A DNA stretch of 11,190 nt, taken from assembly GCA_040752395.1 (NCBI GenBank), contig JBFMHD010000037.1, positions 5,404 through 16,593 on the forward strand, written 5' to 3'. This stretch comes from Candidatus Hydrogenedentota bacterium. GTDB lineage: Bacteria; JBFMHD01. The position numbers were made by a program, and so were the translations under genes. Of this stretch, positions 463-11,027 are shown piece after piece. The number at the start of each line of letters is the position of its first letter. Within the stretch, counting starts at the first letter, position 1. Under the pieces are notes generated by a model. The model was not told where the DNA came from. It saw only the letters and a program-made list of their open reading frames with translations, and did no database searches.

Positions 463-1863
463 ATGTATATTAATGAATCCCAGATGCAAAAGATTGTTGA
501 GAAAGTTATAGAGCGACTGAAAGATGCAGGTGAAATCATTATTGATGTTAATAGAGGTGATGGAATATTCGAGGATATAGAATCAGCGATTACAGCTGCT
601 AAAAATGCTCAAAAAACTCTGCTTGAATTATCACTTGAGAAAAGAATAGAGATAATCGAAAGTATGCGTAAATTTGCTCGAACACAGGTTCATCGATTCG
701 CAGTAATGGGCGTTGAAGAGACGGGTATGGGTAGAGTAGAAGATAAGATTGCTAAAAATTTGCTTGCTATAAATAAGACACCAGGTGTTGAAGACCTTAT
801 CCCATGGGTCTGTAGCGGCGACCACGGTCTTACCCTTGAAGAAAAAGCACCGTTTGGTGTTATTGGTTCCATTACTCCGTCCACAAATATTACTGAAACT
901 GTTATTGGCAATGCTATCTGTATGATAGCAGCAGGGAACAGCGTGGTGTTTAATCCTCACCCATCTGCTAAAAGAACAGCACAGGCTGCAATGGTGGTAC
1001 TGAATCAGGCTATAATAAAAGCAGCCGGACCAGCTAACCTTATAACCACAGTAAGAGAGCCAACCTTAAAATCAGCTGAGACTATTTTCACGCATCCTGA
1101 AGTTAAACTCGTACTTGTAACTGGCGGACCTGCTGTTGTTGAAGCAGCTATGAAATATCCTAAACGTTGCATCTGTGCAGGACCAGGAAACCCGCCTGTT
1201 GTTGTAGATGAAACAGCTGATATAAAAAAAGCAGCTAAAGATATAATTTTAGGTGCTACGCTGGATAATAATATTCTGTGCATCGCAGAAAAAGAGATAT
1301 TTGTTGTTGAGCCTGTATGTGATGTGCTTAACTCTGAATTAAAACGTGCCGGTGGATATCAATTGTCAGGGTATCAAATGGACCAATTAATGAAACATAT
1401 TGTTGTTAAAGAGGAAGTGGTGAACAGAGAACTTGTTGGCAGGAATGCTAATGTTATAGCTAAATATATAGGGTTAACTATACCTCAAGAAGTGAGACTA
1501 CTTTTTGCCGAGGTCTCAAAGGAGCATCCGCTTATTTATTTAGAACAGCTTATGCCCGTGATACCTGTTGTCAGAATTAAAAACGTAGAAGAAGGTATAG
1601 AACTATCTCTCAAAGCAGAGCACGGATACAAACACACAGCTATTATGCACTCTAAGAATATCGAGCGGTTATCAAGGATGGCACGTATTATGGATGTATC
1701 TATATTTGTTAAGAATGGGCCTTCCTGTGCAGGTCTTGGTTATGGTGGAGAAGGCTACACTACCTTTTCAATCGCAGGTACAACAGGTGAGGGCTTGACT
1801 ACACCAAAAACATTTACCCGACCCAGACGCTGTACACTGGTAGATTATTTTAGAATCGTATAA
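463..1863 (+). CDS. CoA-acylating aldehyde dehydrogenase, PduP/EutE-type BMC core enzyme, with an N-terminal encapsulation-peptide-like amphipathic helix
   Basis: 466 aa. ICAGPGNPP and NNILCIAEKEIFVVE motifs are typical of acylating ALDH. The N-terminus SQMQKIVEKVIERLKD is amphipathic and precedes the catalytic domain. Confidence 0.88.
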   Translation: MYINESQMQKIVEKVIERLKDAGEIIIDVNRGDGIFEDIESAITAAKNAQKTLLELSLEKRIEIIESMRKFARTQVHRFAVMGVEETGMGRVEDKIAKNLLAINKTPGVEDLIPWVCSGDHGLTLEEKAPFGVIGSITPSTNITETVIGNAICMIAAGNSVVFNPHPSAKRTAQAAMVVLNQAIIKAAGPANLITTVREPTLKSAETIFTHPEVKLVLVTGGPAVVEAAMKYPKRCICAGPGNPPVVVDETADIKKAAKDIILGATLDNNILCIAEKEIFVVEPVCDVLNSELKRAGGYQLSGYQMDQLMKHIVVKEEVVNRELVGRNANVIAKYIGLTIPQEVRLLFAEVSKEHPLIYLEQLMPVIPVVRIKNVEEGIELSLKAEHGYKHTAIMHSKNIERLSRMARIMDVSIFVKNGPSCAGLGYGGEGYTTFSIAGTTGEGLTTPKTFTRPRRCTLVDYFRIV

Positions 1864-1872
1864 GATGAAAAA

Positions 1873-1941
1873 GATAGGAGTTAGGAGTTCGTAATAATAG
1901 ATCCGAGCTCCGAACTCCGAACTCCGAAGTTTTTCGCAGGA
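1873..1941 (+). promoter_or_regulatory. Leader element copy B, a terminator-like hairpin immediately upstream of the SD of the pduS-like gene
   Basis: GGAGTTAGGAGTTCG(1877-1891) pairs with CGAACTCCGAACTCC(1911-1925), 15 bp with one mismatch. Then gaag, TTTTT(1930-1934) and GCAGGAG. Confidence 0.45.
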
Positions 1942-3282
1942 GTGATGGAATACTATATGGTAGAGAAAAAAAGAGATTTAATTGATATAATTAAAGAAGC
2001 AGGGGTTGTGGGCGCTGGCGGTGCTGGATTCCCTACACATATTAAATACAGCACAGAGGTTGAATATGTAATAGCAAATGGTGCCGAGTGCGAACCACTT
2101 CTACGTGTCGATCAACAATTAATGGATAAATATGCAAATGAGATAATACAGGCGTTACTTGCTGTAAAAGAAAGAGTAAAAGCAAAAGAAGCTATGGTGG
2201 GATTAAAATCTAAATATAAAGATGCTATTCGCTCCCTTAAAAAAGCTTCAAAAGATAGAGTAAGATTACATCTTCTTGAGAATGTGTATCCTGCCGGCGA
2301 TGAACATATTCTTCTTTATGATATGACAAAAAGAATCGTTCCAGAAGGTGGCATACCATTGCAGGTCGGCGCTGTTGTCTCTAATGTTGCCACACTTCTG
2401 TGGGTATATGAAGCAATGAATGGTAAACCTGTTACTGATAGGTGGCTGACAGTAACAGGTGAGGTTAATAAACCACAGACTATAAAGGTTCCGATTGGTA
2501 CCACAGTCAGAGATGTGCTGGAGTTTTGTGGCAGAGTAAAGATAAAAGATTTTAAAGTTATTGTTGGTGGACCAATAATGGGGGGTCTGGCTGAGAGTAT
2601 AGATCAAGGGATATTAAAGACTACAAGCGCCATTATTGTTTTACCAAAAGACCATTATGCTGTGTCTTACAAATATTTTGATTTAAATCTACATATCAAA
2701 ACGTCTAAAGCAGCGTGTTGTCAGTGTACATTCTGCACCAGTATTTGTCCGCGCAATTTAATAGGTCATTCAATAGAGCCTCATAAAATAATGAGGGGGA
2801 TATCATTTGGTGTTAATACAGCGGTCAAGGATGCTACGTTAGCTTTTTTATGTTGTGAATGCCAGTTGTGTTATTTCGCCTGTCCGATGAATTTAGCACC
2901 AGGAAGAATTAATGCTCTATTAAAACAGGAATTGACAAAAAAAGGCATAAAGAATCCGCATAATTTGAAACATAACAGGGCCCATATAATAAGAGAATAC
3001 AGGCTTCAACCTCTTAAAAGATTGATTGTTAAACTCGGGTTAACAGACTATGATGTTGATGCTCCTATATCTGATGAAACTTTTTTGCCAAAAAGGGTAA
3101 AAATATCATTGAAACAACATTTTGGCAAAAGTGCTGTTTGTGTGGTAAAAGAAGGGGCTAAAATTAAAAGAGGCGATGTTATAGGTGAAGCTGCTGAGGG
3201 TATATCAGCACGGGTTCATAGCTCTATAGATGGAATTGTAAAGAGTACACAGGGTGATGAGGTTATAATAAGTAGTGGATAA
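1942..3282 (+). CDS. PduS/RnfC-family flavoprotein with two [4Fe-4S] ferredoxin motifs
   Basis: AGVVGAGGAGFPTHIKY and NGAECEP motifs (RnfC/Nqo1-like NADH/FMN domain). Two CxxCxxCxxxCP motifs (CCQCTFCTSICP, CCECQLCYFACP). C-terminal barrel-sandwich-like segment. Start is ambiguous: GTG 1942, ATG 1945 or ATG 1957. Confidence 0.85.
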   Translation: MMEYYMVEKKRDLIDIIKEAGVVGAGGAGFPTHIKYSTEVEYVIANGAECEPLLRVDQQLMDKYANEIIQALLAVKERVKAKEAMVGLKSKYKDAIRSLKKASKDRVRLHLLENVYPAGDEHILLYDMTKRIVPEGGIPLQVGAVVSNVATLLWVYEAMNGKPVTDRWLTVTGEVNKPQTIKVPIGTTVRDVLEFCGRVKIKDFKVIVGGPIMGGLAESIDQGILKTTSAIIVLPKDHYAVSYKYFDLNLHIKTSKAACCQCTFCTSICPRNLIGHSIEPHKIMRGISFGVNTAVKDATLAFLCCECQLCYFACPMNLAPGRINALLKQELTKKGIKNPHNLKHNRAHIIREYRLQPLKRLIVKLGLTDYDVDAPISDETFLPKRVKISLKQHFGKSAVCVVKEGAKIKRGDVIGEAAEGISARVHSSIDGIVKSTQGDEVIISSG

Positions 3283-3298
3283 TCCATTGGTTATAGTT

Positions 3299-3326
3299 AG
3301 AAGCAAGAGGCAAGAAGCAAGATAAC
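3299..3326 (+). repeat. AGAAGCAAGAGGCAAGAAGCAAGATAAC tract, an inverted copy of 384-411
   Basis: Reverse complement of 384-411 with one mismatch. Related tracts at 6128-6150 and 10789-10800. Confidence 0.7.
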
Positions 3327-3361
3327 AGAAGAAGTGAGAAGTAAAGACCAAGGAGAGAACA

Positions 3362-3910
3362 ATGGAACAGGCTTTAGGGTTACTCGAGACAACGAGTGTC
3401 GCGTTAGGTGTTCAGGGTTGTGATGCGATGCTGAAATCAGGTAATGTTATATTGTTGGAGTCACGACCCACGTGTCCGGGTAAGCACTTTACATTAATTT
3501 CAGGTGAGGTCGGTGCTGTAAGAACAGCTATCGCAGCTGGTGAATTAGCTGCCTTCCCATCTGTGGTTCAGACAATGATTATCCCGAATGTTCACCCTTG
3601 TGTTATACCTGCGTTTACAGGTTCTAATATAGTAGAAGAGATAGAGGCTTTAGGTGTGATTGAGACCTATTCTTTAGCAGCCTGTGTTGAGATGGCTGAT
3701 GCAGCAGTAAAAGCTGCTGAAATTAAACTTATTGAAGTGCGATTAGGTTCAGGGCTTGCTGGTAAGTCATTTATATATTTAACAGGTACGGTGGGAGCTG
3801 TGAGGTCTGCTGTTTCTGCTTGTTTATCGCTTGAACATCATAAAGGATTGGTTCACTCAAGTATCATTATACCTTCACCGCATCCTGATTTAATCAAAGC
3901 GATTTTATAA
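3362..3910 (+). CDS. Tandem-BMC-domain shell protein (BMC-T), PduT-like, with the conserved Fe-S ligand Cys38
   Basis: Two BMC (PF00936-like) repeats (ALGLLET...GEVGAVRTAI and ALGVIETYSLAA...GTVGAVRSAV). The PTCPGKHF motif aligns with PduT TICPGKF. The Cys38 codon is tgt at 3473-3475. Confidence 0.88.
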   Translation: MEQALGLLETTSVALGVQGCDAMLKSGNVILLESRPTCPGKHFTLISGEVGAVRTAIAAGELAAFPSVVQTMIIPNVHPCVIPAFTGSNIVEEIEALGVIETYSLAACVEMADAAVKAAEIKLIEVRLGSGLAGKSFIYLTGTVGAVRSAVSACLSLEHHKGLVHSSIIIPSPHPDLIKAIL

Positions 3911-3932
3911 GAATGTCAGTCGACATTCTTTT
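3911..3932 (+). terminator. Intrinsic terminator-like hairpin GAATGTC-agtc-GACATTC followed by TTTT
   Basis: 7-bp perfect stem, 4-nt loop, T-run at 3929-3932, immediately after the pduT-like stop codon. Confidence 0.55.
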
Positions 3933-3971
3933 GGATACGGAACGATATCAGCTTTGCAGGATTAAGGAGTT

Positions 3972-4214
3972 ATGGATAAAGAATATATAGCTTCTGTGAT
4001 AACAGAAGTTATAAATGAAGAGATAAAGATAAAAGATAAACTTACATATCCAGCGAAAGAAGTCGTAAGAGTTGATGAGGTTATCGATGAAAGGATTATA
4101 AGAGATTTAATAAAAGGGAAAGCAGATGTTGTGAAAATAAAAAGTAGCGCAAAGATTACACCGCTTGCAATGGATAGAATAAAAGAGTCTAAAATTAAAG
4201 TTGTGAGAACATAA
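3972..4214 (+). CDS. Small (80 aa) BMC-locus protein of unknown function, with SAF/beta-grasp-like resemblance
   Basis: Strong RBS (AAGGAG, 5 nt before the ATG). The segment IIRDLIKGKADVVKI...AKITPLAMDRIKESKIKVV resembles the SAF-domain pattern xDIxKGxxVxKY...IGxAxxDIxxGExV (as in UxaA_N, FlgA, CpaB). This resemblance comes from memory only. Confidence 0.6.
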   Translation: MDKEYIASVITEVINEEIKIKDKLTYPAKEVVRVDEVIDERIIRDLIKGKADVVKIKSSAKITPLAMDRIKESKIKVVRT

Positions 4215-4215
4215 C

Positions 4216-4509
4216 GTGTTTTTTGCAAAAGTGATAGGTAATGTAGTTGCAACAAAAAAAAACGAAAATCTAAAAGGAAGAAGATTACTTCTTGTTCAGC
4301 CTGTAGACGAAAATATGAAACCCAGGGGGGACCCTGTTATTGCACTTGATTGGCTTGGCACAGATGAAGATGAATTAGTTTTTATAGTTCAGGGGAGAGA
4401 AGCTGTATATGAGGAATCTATGAAAGTAATGATACCAGCTGATGCTGGTATATTTGGTATTATTGATTCAGTGGATACAAAAGATAAGAACCTTTATAGA
4501 AAGCATTAG
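4216..4509 (+). CDS. BMC vertex protein (BMC-P), EutN/PduN/CcmL family, copy 1
   Basis: MFFAKVIGNVVATKK... is the classic EutN N-terminus. 97 aa. GTG start directly follows the upstream TAA stop. Confidence 0.85.
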   Translation: MFFAKVIGNVVATKKNENLKGRRLLLVQPVDENMKPRGDPVIALDWLGTDEDELVFIVQGREAVYEESMKVMIPADAGIFGIIDSVDTKDKNLYRKH

Positions 4510-4522
4510 GCTCGGGGGATGT

Positions 4523-4798
4523 ATGATCCTTTGTAAAGTTGTTGGTGTGGTTGTATCAACACAAAAAAATAAAAAGTTCGAGGGTGTTAAAATTTTTGTT
4601 GTACAGCCGATTAATCCCTCAGGCGAACCTATAGGAAATACTTTAATCTCTGCAGAATATGAGAATGATGCAGGCATCGGAGATACTGTATTAGTATTTA
4701 CTAAAGGGAATGCATCAAGATTAGTTGTAAGGGACCTTTCTTCACCAGTAGATTATGCTATCTGTGGTATTGTTGACAGAATAGAGATGAGTCATTAG
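4523..4798 (+). CDS. BMC vertex protein (BMC-P), EutN/PduN family, copy 2
   Basis: MILCKVVGVVVSTQKN... 91 aa. GGGGGA RBS 5 nt upstream. The 4442 start given in the ORF track is an upstream read-through extension. Confidence 0.85.
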   Translation: MILCKVVGVVVSTQKNKKFEGVKIFVVQPINPSGEPIGNTLISAEYENDAGIGDTVLVFTKGNASRLVVRDLSSPVDYAICGIVDRIEMSH

Positions 4799-4802
4799 TG
4801 GT

Positions 4803-5720
4803 TTACCATCTTTTGCGTTTCCAGAAAAGCATAAACCATACCATCGCAAGCAGAGCTATTAACATTATAATCCAGAAAGAAGAAAGACGCTCTTGAGAAA
4901 TAGGTAGCGGTACATTCATTGAGAAGATACTAACAACAAGTGTGGGAACCATAATTGAGATGGTAATAATATTCAAGGTTTTCATCAAAATATTAAGATT
5001 ATTATTTACGATTGAGGCACGGGCATCCATTAATCCTGCTAAAATATTTGAATATATTTCAGCTTGTTTATAACATTGAGAGTTTTCAATTGCTATATCA
5101 TCAAGTAGTTCAAGATTTTCCTGCGTGAGAACAATTTTGGTTGCATTATGTCTTATTTTTTCAATCAGCATAGAATTGGAATTAATAGAATTTAGATAAT
5201 AAACAAGACTCTTTTCAAGAGTGAATAAATTAAGGAGGTATTTATTTTCCATAGCATGAATTAATTTTTTTTCAAGTGAATCTGATACCATATTTATGAC
5301 CTTTAAATGTTCAAGATAATGATGGATTGAGCGATAGATAAGTCTGAGTAATAAATCCTGTAAAGACGTTATACGATTAAAGAGTTTTCCATCAAATAAT
5401 AAAGTGTTATCGGGTAAAATAACGATTAAATGTTCTTTAAAAAGAAAGAGTCCGACAGAATAGACCTTGAATAAAAATTTATCACTTGATGAATAGTTTT
5501 TAGGTTTTTTATAGATTATAGCGATATGCTCAGGCTCGAACTCCAATCGTGATAGCTCATCAGGGTCCAGAGCGGAATTAAGAGTGTGTTCATCGAGCTC
5601 GAATTCATCTAATAGATATTTTCTTTCAGCTTCATCAGGATTGACAAAGACTAAAATTTTAGCATCACCATCCGGGGCTTCTACGATTTTATCACCGAGT
5701 ATAAGATACTTTCTTAACAT
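4803..5720 (-). CDS. CorA-family divalent-cation transporter with an SMN motif in place of the canonical GMN
   Basis: 305 aa. C-terminal TM1-loop-TM2-KRKRW topology. The loop reads VVSIFSMNVPLP; the codon TCA=Ser was confirmed on the reverse strand at 4920-4946. Confidence 0.82.
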   Translation of the reverse strand: MLRKYLILGDKIVEAPDGDAKILVFVNPDEAERKYLLDEFELDEHTLNSALDPDELSRLEFEPEHIAIIYKKPKNYSSSDKFLFKVYSVGLFLFKEHLIVILPDNTLLFDGKLFNRITSLQDLLLRLIYRSIHHYLEHLKVINMVSDSLEKKLIHAMENKYLLNLFTLEKSLVYYLNSINSNSMLIEKIRHNATKIVLTQENLELLDDIAIENSQCYKQAEIYSNILAGLMDARASIVNNNLNILMKTLNIITISIMVPTLVVSIFSMNVPLPISQERLSSFWIIMLIALLAMVWFMLFWKRKRW

Positions 5721-6050: not shown

Positions 6051-6121
6051 AAATAATATCTTAACATATATGAAAATATTGTCTATAATTTATTTGACAT
6101 AATTCCCTCGCTTATAGGTTG

Positions 6122-6305
6122 TAAGAAGTAAGAAGCAAGAGGCAAGAAGTAGATAATATGTTGGCTCCGGGCTTGGGGTTCCAGACTCCAGCCGGCTGTA
6201 GTCCGTAGCCTGAAGCCTGTAGCCCGAAGAGATGTTTTTTTAATTTTTCATAGTAGGAGGTTATCAGTAAACAGAAAACCGAAAACCAAACACCGAACTT
6301 AAGAA
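6122..6305 (+). repeat. Mosaic intergenic repeat cassette, copy 2 (partial)
   Basis: It contains AGAAGCAAGAGGCAAGAAG, the GGCTCCGGGCTTGGGG...CAGCCGGCTGTAGTCCGTAGCC core, a T-run plus AGGAGG, (AAACCGA)n and ACACCGAACTTAAGAA (6290-6305). The last box matches 11012-11027. Confidence 0.65.
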
Positions 6306-6367: not shown

Positions 6368-6811
6368 ATGAAAGTTATAACAGTTAATAAGAAAGCTGGG
6401 TTTAATTATCAAATATTTGAAAGGTTTGAAGCTGGTATAGTTCTTAAAGGTAGTGAGGTAAAATCAATAAGAGAAGGTAATATAAATTTAAAAGATGGTT
6501 ATTGTATAATGAAGGCAGATGAATTATATCTTATAAATGTGCATATATCAAGGTATAAGCCATCAGGAGTATTGAATCATGAACCTGAACGGGCACGAAA
6601 AATGCTCCTTCATAAAAGAGAATTAAAAAGATTGACAGGAAAGATCAATGAGAGAGGGTTAAGTATTATACCATTAAAGGTTTATATAAATCAAAAAGGC
6701 AGAATCAAAGTTGAGATAGGTTTAGCTAAGGGGAAAAGTAAGATTGATAAACGTGAGGATTTAAGAAAAAGAGCTATTGATAGAGAGATTGAGAGAGAGT
6801 TAAAGTATTGA
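6368..6811 (+). CDS. smpB: SsrA-binding protein SmpB
   Basis: 147 aa. KKAGFNYQIFERFEAGIVLKGSEVKSIREGNINLKDGY matches the SmpB signature. A basic C-terminal tail is present. The tmRNA gene follows on the same strand. Confidence 0.95.
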   Translation: MKVITVNKKAGFNYQIFERFEAGIVLKGSEVKSIREGNINLKDGYCIMKADELYLINVHISRYKPSGVLNHEPERARKMLLHKRELKRLTGKINERGLSIIPLKVYINQKGRIKVEIGLAKGKSKIDKREDLRKRAIDREIERELKY

Positions 6812-6850
6812 CGAATCTAAAGTATTATAGTAATATATAAAATTATAGGA

Positions 6851-6969
6851 GACAGAAGACAGAAGTTAAAAAGATACAAAGATTGAAAGATTCAAATGCA
6901 TTTTAACTTTTAATAGGAGGGTAAATAAATTTGCAATTTGCAATTTACAATGGAGCAAAGCGACAAGAA
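6851..6969 (+). repeat. Phase-coherent chain of heptamer tandem tracts upstream of the tmRNA
   Basis: (GACAGAA)x2, AAGATTG/AAAGATT, ATTTTAA/CTTTTAA, (AATTTGC)x3 and a GGAGCAAAGCGACA box (6952-6965). Confidence 0.6.
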
Positions 6970-6971
6970 AG

Positions 6972-7370
<399 letters not shown>

Positions 7371-8177: not shown

Positions 8178-8185
8178 TTTTTATT

Positions 8186-8420
8186 CAAGGGTTGAGGCAC
8201 TGCCAGAGAAGAATCTTATCTGCGGAATTTTTGCAATTCGTACAGAATTTTTGCTTTCGAGTCTGGCGTCTGAAGCATACGAATGGAGAATGGGTTGAGG
8301 CACTGCCTCATCCGTCTCTTTGCCAACAAAATTTCGCTTTTTGCATAGAGAATTCGCTTTTGCTGTATGGCATAGCAGATACCGAATGGTAGAATGGGTT
8401 GAGGCACTGCCTCATAATAC
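8186..8420. repeat. Three diverged ~104-bp tandem units, each carrying the palindrome TGAGGCA-c-TGCCTCA
   Basis: Palindromes at 8193-8207 (imperfect, right arm TGCCAGA), 8296-8310 and 8400-8414 (both perfect). Spacing is 103 and 104 bp. The units also share CGAATGG(T)AGAATGGG and GAATTTTTGC-like subrepeats. The period is not divisible by 3. Confidence 0.75.
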
Positions 8421-10786: not shown

Positions 10787-11027
10787 TAGAAGCAAGAGGC
10801 ACAAAGGCACAGAGGCACAAAGTATGAAAAGAGTCGTGAGTCAAAACAGGACTCGAGACTCAAGACTCAAGACTTTTTAGCAGGCTCCGGGCTTCGGGCT
10901 CCAGCCGGCTGTAGTCCGTAGCCCGTAGCCTGTACCCCGAATTATTAGAGTTACAGCGTTTTTCAGAGGAGCGAAGCGACAATTAGGTTATCGGTGAACT
11001 GACCACCTAACACCGAACTTAAGAAAC
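10787..11027 (+). repeat. Mosaic intergenic repeat cassette, copy 3
   Basis: AGAAGCAAGAGGCAC, (GAGGCAC/AAGGCAC)x3, ATGAAAAGAGTC...(GACTCAA)n...GGCTCCGGGCTTCGGGCTCCAGCCGGCTGTAGTCCGTAGCC, ATTATTAGAGTTACAGCGTTTTTCAGAGGAG, GGAGCGAAGCGACA and ACACCGAACTTAAGAA. Collinear with copy 1 but with fewer tandem units. Confidence 0.7.

Follow-up and report, generated by a model that had tools for sequence, protein, structure and literature searches.

Citrobacter freundii PduS was described by Parsons et al. in 2010 as an FMN protein that carries two [4Fe-4S] clusters and co-purifies with PduT, and it was proposed at that time that electrons leave the compartment via PduS and PduT (PMC2982820). C38 of PduT binds a [4Fe-4S] cluster, and the reported potentials are about -150 to -262 mV for the PduS cofactors and +99 mV for the PduT cluster (PMC6325248; PMC2982820). 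A 2019 review of GRM loci noted PduT genes with the conserved Cys beside PduS outside PDU loci (PMC6325248). In PNAS in 2024, Sutter et al. reported the metabolosome NADH dehydrogenase, MNdh, in 2,172 of >7,000 BMC loci, many of which are of non-B12 types (PMC11626177). BMC-T^SE adjoins MNdh in 97%, and the CP(G/S)K motif is universal only in those neighbours; AldDH always co-occurs with MNdh, and an alcohol dehydrogenase is missing from 361 loci (PMC11626177). [quoted passage not shown] In that model, NAD+ is regenerated for AldDH by the export of electrons through the shell (PMC11626177).

PduS-T pairs have also been catalogued in Candidatus Hydrogenedentes, as FRAG6 and FRAG7 (Sutter et al. 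2021, PMC8217296 supplement). The BMC loci of this phylum were classed as fragmented (FRAG), the missing shell genes being located at other sites of the genome (PMC8217296 supplement). In FRAG7, the PduS-T pair occurs with BMC-H, an EP-bearing AldDH, PTAC and a PF02441 flavoprotein, and a BMC-P triplet is present at a second site (PMC8217296 supplement).

The stretch of DNA analyzed here (the window) comprises 11.2 kb of a 16,593-bp contig from a Candidatus Hydrogenedentota MAG, with approximately 5.4 kb of the contig lying outside it. Genes for AldDH (463-1863), MNdh (1942-3282) and a tandem-BMC protein (3362-3910) follow one another in this order on the + strand and belong to a cluster with the following features:

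463..1863, + strand: CoA-acylating aldehyde dehydrogenase, EutE/PduP-like AldDH (PF00171, E 1e-32)
1942..3282, + strand: PduS-like flavo-iron-sulfur protein, MNdh (Pfam domains, RnfC match)
3362..3910, + strand: PduT-type tandem-BMC shell protein, BMC-T^S subtype BMC-T^SE, 182 aa (Pfam, PDB alignment, AlphaFold2)
3473..3475, + strand: TGT codon of Cys38 in the motif C38-P-G-K-H; each subunit would contribute this one Cys as ligand to a [4Fe-4S] cluster predicted on the trimer axis
3972..4214, + strand: 80-aa protein, MEW5692363.1, annotated as hypothetical
4216..4509, + strand: BMC-P pentamer (vertex) shell protein 1, 97 aa, GTG start (PF03319 EutN_CcmL, E 3e-25)
4523..4798, + strand: BMC-P pentamer (vertex) shell protein 2, 91 aa, start at ATG 4523 (PF03319, E 8e-21; NCBIfam)

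Because the window matches the MNdh/BMC-T^SE template point by point, we favor, with a probability of roughly 75%, the reading that 463-4798 is part of a metabolosome in which the PduT-like/MNdh pair would regenerate NAD+ by electron export.

The translation of 3362-3910 opens with MEQALGLLETTSVALGVQGCDAMLKSGNVILLESRPTCPGKHF, and the 182-aa product is identical to MEW5692362.1 (NCBI). No ORF of at least 60 aa overlaps the gene on the opposite strand. Analysis using Pfam revealed two PF00936 BMC stretches in the protein (E 4.7e-43). In a PDB sequence search, the top match was 3NWG (E 4.2e-47, gapless), while PduT from C. freundii, 3PAC, aligned without gaps over residues 1-177 (E 3.9e-44) and the C38S mutant of Salmonella PduT, 3N79, was likewise gapless (E 3.1e-41). 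With two tandem, non-permuted BMC domains and alignment to PduT structures over its full length, the protein has the build and the size of a BMC-T^SE (~180 aa). The gene also has the context by which BMC-T^SE is recognized, as it lies beside MNdh/PduS and the locus includes an acylating AldDH. A single-chain AlphaFold2 model based on a 20-sequence alignment had a mean pLDDT of 91.8; using Foldseek, it matched 3NWG with a TM score of 0.94 (rmsd 1.4 Å) and 3PAC with a TM score of 0.87. The score against the eut_PduT equivalog of NCBIfam, TIGR02526, was 123.4 bits (E 8e-36), which is below the curated cutoff of 250.3 bits. The protein should thus be named a BMC-T^SE/PduT-family protein and not PduT: judged by its sequence, it is a relative of enterobacterial PduT and not an equivalog. 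Its closest other relative shares at most 53% identity. From homology to 3PAC and 3N79 and from the literature, we infer a trimer in which one [4Fe-4S] cluster is held by three symmetry-related Cys.

The original prediction had located Cys38 within PTCPGKHF, with its codon at 3473-3475, and had equated it with the cluster ligand of PduT. Indeed, the codon reads TGT and the gapless PDB alignments put C38 on the pore Cys. Specifically, it aligned with the Cys of ICPGK in 3PAC, the Ser of ISPGK in 3N79 and the Cys of VCPGK in 3NWG. In the AlphaFold2 model, residues 37-41 form a loop between strands 29-36 and 42-48 and, as modelled, this loop is the canonical β2-β3 pore loop of BMC domain 1. The CP(G/S)K pore-loop motif of BMC-T^SE is present as C38-P39-G40-K41.

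The conservation of these residues was evaluated in an alignment of 121 sequences, consisting of the best 120 matches and Salmonella PduT. C38 and G40 were kept in 121/121 of the aligned homologues and K41 in 118/121; the curated 20-sequence alignment gave an identical set of invariant positions. Chance is ruled out for Cys38 because it is invariant throughout the 121 homologues. As all relatives share at most 53% identity with the window protein, the loss of the Cys from close orthologues, which had been named beforehand as evidence against the cluster assignment, could be looked for in distant homologues only, and every one of these had kept it. A second sample was obtained from 80 metagenomic loci fetched via AldDH similarity, in which every tandem-BMC match was scored. 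All 30 of the tandem-BMC genes adjoining MNdh encode a Cys at the C38 position, in the motifs CPGKY (26), CCGKF (2), CSGKY (1) and CSGKF (1). Among the matches in these loci that do not adjoin MNdh, the Cys occurred in only 1/22, many of the 22 being adjacent BMC-H gene pairs or other classes of BMC-T. Where a true PduT-like gene has no MNdh beside it, the residue at this position is Ser (L010) or Thr (L019). It had been suggested that the window protein "retains" Cys38. The Cys is certainly there, but special retention was rejected: beside PduS, the residue is invariant across the family. Being found in all relatives, Cys38 is a defining feature of the subfamily and not a notable retention.

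The residue that follows the motif is less usual. Residue 42 (codon 3485-3487) is His in the window protein, as compared with Tyr in 111 of the 121 homologues, Phe in seven and His in one other. The published PduT motif is C-P/S/A-G-K/R/S-Y/F (PMC6325248). It is unlikely that His42 serves as a fourth ligand of the cluster.

The partner gene, MNdh, lies 79 nt upstream of the tandem-BMC gene. The ORF finder placed its start at GTG 1942. Comparison with the homologue in locus L006 points instead to ATG 1957 (MVEKKRDLIDII), which is the probable start. In order, the Pfam domains of MNdh are Complex1_51K (E 6e-43), SLBB, Fer4_17 and a C-terminal RnfC_N. The RnfC structure 7ZC6 was matched at E 1e-56; relative to RnfC, the RnfC_N domain of the protein is permuted and lies at the C-terminus. 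Two CxxCxxCxxxCP motifs are present, CCQCTFCTSICP at 259-270 and CCECQLCYFACP at 304-315, and their cluster Cys residues (259, 262, 265, 269, 304, 307, 310 and 314) are all invariant in 25/25 homologues. The glycine-rich NADH/FMN motif, GVVGAGGAGFPT, occupies residues 21-32; within G(V/I)(V/I)GAGGAGFPT, the Gly, Ala, Phe and Pro positions are invariant in the same 25 homologues and Thr32 is kept in 24. The domain architecture and the motifs are both those of MNdh/PduS. The claim that the shell protein gene is directly downstream of a PduS-like gene encoding two such clusters is thus borne out.

Short repeats occupy many of the gaps between the genes of the window. Most of the longer intergenic spacers, at 43-412, 1872-1930, 3298-3343, 6121-6305, 6850-6951 and 10797-11025, are filled by short arrays (2-5 copies) of varied heptamers, the units of which include ACTTTTA, TAGGAGT, TCCGAAC, GACTCAA, CTGTAGC, AGAAGCA and AAACCGA. 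The pattern resembles the STRR heptamer repeats of cyanobacteria or REP-like elements, and we know of no report of such heptamer repeats for Hydrogenedentota. A composite block at 253-358 matches 10832-10937 (93% over 106 nt), and the block at 304-367 has further copies at 6170-6233 and 10883-10946. Where units in neighbouring arrays are complementary, hairpins are predicted, namely at 236-300 (z -5.3) and 1868-1938 (z -3.6). The hairpin and the sequence TTTTTCG(A/C)AGGAG that precede the MNdh start (1872-1960) recur at 83-140, where they precede only a 29-aa ORF (145-233) that had no database match. This recurrence indicates that the ribosome-binding-site-like sequence belongs to the repeat unit. 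In the AldDH leader, the pyrimidine-rich segment 367-412 (46 nt) is 91% reverse-complementary to the purine-rich segment 3298-3343, which is found 2.9 kb farther along the same strand, in the spacer immediately before the PduT-like gene; a related copy is found at 6123-6152. The complementarity could be a chance result of dispersed repeats or could reflect long-range pairing in an operon transcript. Finally, the spacer after the amidase gene (8184-8415) contains three copies of AGAATGGGTTGAGGCACTGCCTCAT, two identical and one at 72%, approximately 104 nt apart, which points to a ~104-nt tandem repeat or a repeated structured element.

The gene upstream of MNdh encodes the AldDH, which scored 646.5 bits against NCBIfam NF011927 (cutoff 403). 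Its N-terminus is an amphipathic helix resembling an encapsulation peptide (MYINESQMQKIVEKVIERLKD), and the enzyme is presumed to be the source of NADH in the lumen. At the other end, BMC-P protein 2 closes the cluster, and a convergent gene for CorA (4803-5720, PF01544) follows on the opposite strand. The remaining genes of the window are smpB, tmRNA and those for an amidase, a protein with a Germane domain (PF10646) and LptC/A/B. The smpB gene (6368-6811) and, 160 nt downstream, the full-length tmRNA (6972-7333; Rfam RF00023, 177 bits) are ordinary and confirm a bacterial chromosomal context.

The original prediction stated that the pair was kept here without a diol dehydratase. Among the ORFs of the 11.2-kb window, we found no diol dehydratase, PduCDE, EutBC (ethanolamine lyase), PduO or PduGH; the set that characterizes PDU loci, PduCDE with a reactivase and an adenosyltransferase, is therefore not in this window of the 16.6-kb contig. 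Also not found among the window ORFs were BMC-H, PTAC, an alcohol dehydrogenase, and a glycyl-radical enzyme or its activase. The statement about diol dehydratase holds for the window, but the implied exception does not, as a non-PDU setting is common and describes many of the 2,172 known MNdh loci.

This gene content bears on the role that PduS and PduT play in classical PDU systems. By analogy, the PduS-like protein would act as a corrin (cobalamin) reductase and regenerate adenosyl-B12 for a B12-dependent dehydratase whose gene lies beyond the window, and the PduT-like tile would do no more than hold it in place or carry off excess electrons. The 5.4 kb of contig beyond the window could hold a B12 enzyme. 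Nevertheless, the SPU-type loci in which the nearest relatives of the AldDH reside contain RpiB and DeoC and no B12 enzymes, and none are listed for FRAG6 or FRAG7 of Hydrogenedentes in the 2021 catalog (PMC8217296 supplement). The 2024 study further makes the case that there is little room for cobalamin in MNdh and that the protein functions without B12 (PMC11626177). With no B12 enzymes in the window, in the SPU-type relatives or in FRAG6/7, a role in B12 recycling was judged highly unlikely.

Under the favored reading, NAD+ regeneration by electron export, the genes at 463-4798 would be part of a catabolic BMC (metabolosome) locus. The PduT-like protein would assemble into a pseudo-hexameric trimer tile in the shell, with three Cys38 residues, one from each subunit, holding a [4Fe-4S] cluster in the central pore. 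MNdh would dock on the luminal face of the tile and oxidize the NADH produced by the encapsulated acylating AldDH. The electrons would then pass from FMN through the two [4Fe-4S] clusters of MNdh to the pore cluster and on to a cytosolic acceptor. NAD+ would in this way be regenerated inside the shell with neither an alcohol dehydrogenase nor a role for B12. That the pore binds a cluster, that MNdh forms a complex with the shell, that electrons flow outward, and that the enzymes are encapsulated and lie in the lumen are all points modelled on the characterized homologues. The electron conduit across the shell that had been predicted is supported by homology and would correspond to the MNdh/BMC-T^SE model; what had been predicted at the level of sequence, namely the pore position, the conservation, the PduS signature and the AldDH upstream, was found throughout. 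Three points weigh against export: the eut_PduT score that falls under its cutoff, His42, and a window with no BMC-H, PTAC or signature enzyme.

The same components might serve a reverse or other purpose. Electrons could be imported, for example for the activase of a radical enzyme; the pore could be redox-gated; or the pair could supply or repair Fe-S clusters for luminal enzymes. A supply of electrons to activating enzymes has been proposed for GRM loci (PMC6325248), and mutation of the pore Cys alters shell permeability, as cited in PMC11626177. Against import, the window encodes neither a glycyl-radical enzyme nor an activase, the reported potentials of PduS and PduT run downhill in the outward direction (PMC6325248; PMC2982820), and export is in keeping with the strict linkage of the module to an AldDH that produces NADH (PMC11626177). 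We consider such alternative purposes unlikely, and export remains the favored reading.

To place the cluster among its relatives, loci with similar AldDH genes were compared. The nearest AldDH relatives, at 55-58% identity, occur in loci of the SPU type, a type defined in PMC8217296. The order of genes in these loci is PTAC, BMC-H, a 261-aa EP protein, AldDH, MNdh, T^SE, BMC-H, RpiB and DeoC. The DeoC-type aldolase (PF01791) and RpiB (PF02502) of these loci are not in the window. The order AldDH-MNdh-T is shared with loci L004, L005, L007, L009, L017, L018 and L023. The metagenome scan via AldDH gave no match above 58% identity, and a scan of genome contigs returned two distant loci only.

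These comparisons also bear on whether the cluster is functional. It could be a remnant or orphan fragment from which no shell is made, with Cys38 conserved by descent only. A BMC-H gene is not found in the window, the AldDH is preceded by 462 nt of repeat-filled non-coding DNA, and the BMC loci of the phylum are classed as fragmented. Nevertheless, none of the six ORFs of the cluster is disrupted, their catalytic and ligand residues are conserved, and they are tightly spaced on one strand. Genomes of the FRAG type hold their missing shell genes elsewhere, as noted above. Moreover, L006, a 2.2-kb contig, encodes an AldDH that is 82% identical to that of the window, with BMC-H immediately upstream and MNdh downstream. 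A non-functional remnant is thus very unlikely.

Between the tandem-BMC gene and the BMC-P genes lies the ORF for the 80-aa protein, for which no match was found in Pfam or NCBIfam. Its N-terminus is an encapsulation-peptide-like helix (DKEYIASVITEVINEEIK), and its C-terminus is a domain of ~45 residues with an invariant ITP-A motif. An exhaustive HMMER search retrieved a single small homologue, the 83-aa P0243 (E 1e-5). The two ends of the protein match those of a 261-aa protein whose gene directly precedes AldDH in L004, L007 and L009, as well as those of a 106-aa protein in L003. The 261-aa protein of the SPU loci has no significant Pfam match, and the relative from L004 gave no match in a PDB sequence search. 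The ITP-A motif shows a weak resemblance to E3_binding (peripheral-subunit-binding; E 0.004 for the 261-aa protein). Based on these terminal similarities, the 80-aa ORF is a putative minimal form of a BMC-associated family without a Pfam match. Its product probably serves as a small accessory protein in the lumen or at the shell.

A more specific interpretation is that AldDH, MNdh, BMC-T^SE, the 80-aa protein of the EP and ITPLA type, and the two BMC-P proteins would constitute a distinct, compact, separately regulated unit of Hydrogenedentota with no ADH, PTAC or BMC-H nearby, in which the rare His42 (CPGKH in place of CPGKY/F) would adjust either the potential of the pore cluster or its gating, and the 80-aa protein would act as an adaptor of the module. 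We regard this elaboration as doubtful.

Overall, the PduT-type shell protein with its PduS-type neighbour matches an already published electron-export module, and the finding is correct but ordinary. The pair described here adds a further case of a module that has been surveyed in >2,000 loci and characterized biochemically, this one in a candidate phylum for which sampling is poor. It supports MNdh/BMC-T^SE as a portable housekeeping unit for the recycling of NAD+ in aldehyde-oxidising microcompartments. It also allows better annotation of MEW5692362.1 and of its upstream neighbour, both of which now bear generic names. The pair opens no new question and adds little to what is known of the module.

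Among the described systems, the BMC-T of Haliangium ochraceum (5DIH) and the version of it that was engineered to carry a [4Fe-4S] cluster (5DII) have the same BMC-T^S fold as the window protein (TM about 0.82), but the natural protein has neither the pore Cys nor an MNdh partner. The closest solved structure is 3NWG of Desulfitobacterium hafniense, at 43% identity and with the pore motif VCPGKY; it differs in being a structural-genomics entry from a Firmicute locus. PduT of C. freundii and Salmonella enterica (3PAC, 3N79) is similar in length (184 aa as compared with 182 aa, aligned without gaps), in the Cys38 position, in fold (TM 0.85-0.87) and in having a PduS neighbour. The identity is 39-42%, and the window is without the diol dehydratase or B12-recycling context of those proteins.

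The SPU loci have the AldDH-MNdh-T^SE order and a protein whose ends are like those of the 80-aa ORF. They continue downstream with BMC-H, RpiB and DeoC, whereas the window continues with the 80-aa ORF and two BMC-P genes. The window resembles the catalog description of FRAG7, which is of the same phylum and combines a PduS-T pair with an AldDH that bears an N-terminal EP; in the window AldDH, the N-terminus is EP-like. It differs in that BMC-H, PTAC and the flavoprotein are not found in the window, where two BMC-P genes accompany the pair. The pair is thus already catalogued in the phylum, as FRAG6 and FRAG7 (PMC8217296 supplement).

As compared with other members of the MNdh/BMC-T^SE module (Sutter et al. 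2024), the window pair is only about 45-50% identical and has His in place of Tyr or Phe after CPGK. In other respects the two agree: a PduS-like gene adjoins a PduT-like tandem-BMC gene with CP(G/S)K, an acylating AldDH is present, there is no B12 enzyme or alcohol dehydrogenase nearby, and the domains and cofactor motifs are the same. An electron conduit without a diol dehydratase is, in fact, the published MNdh/BMC-T^SE model (PMC11626177; earlier PMC2982820, PMC6325248).
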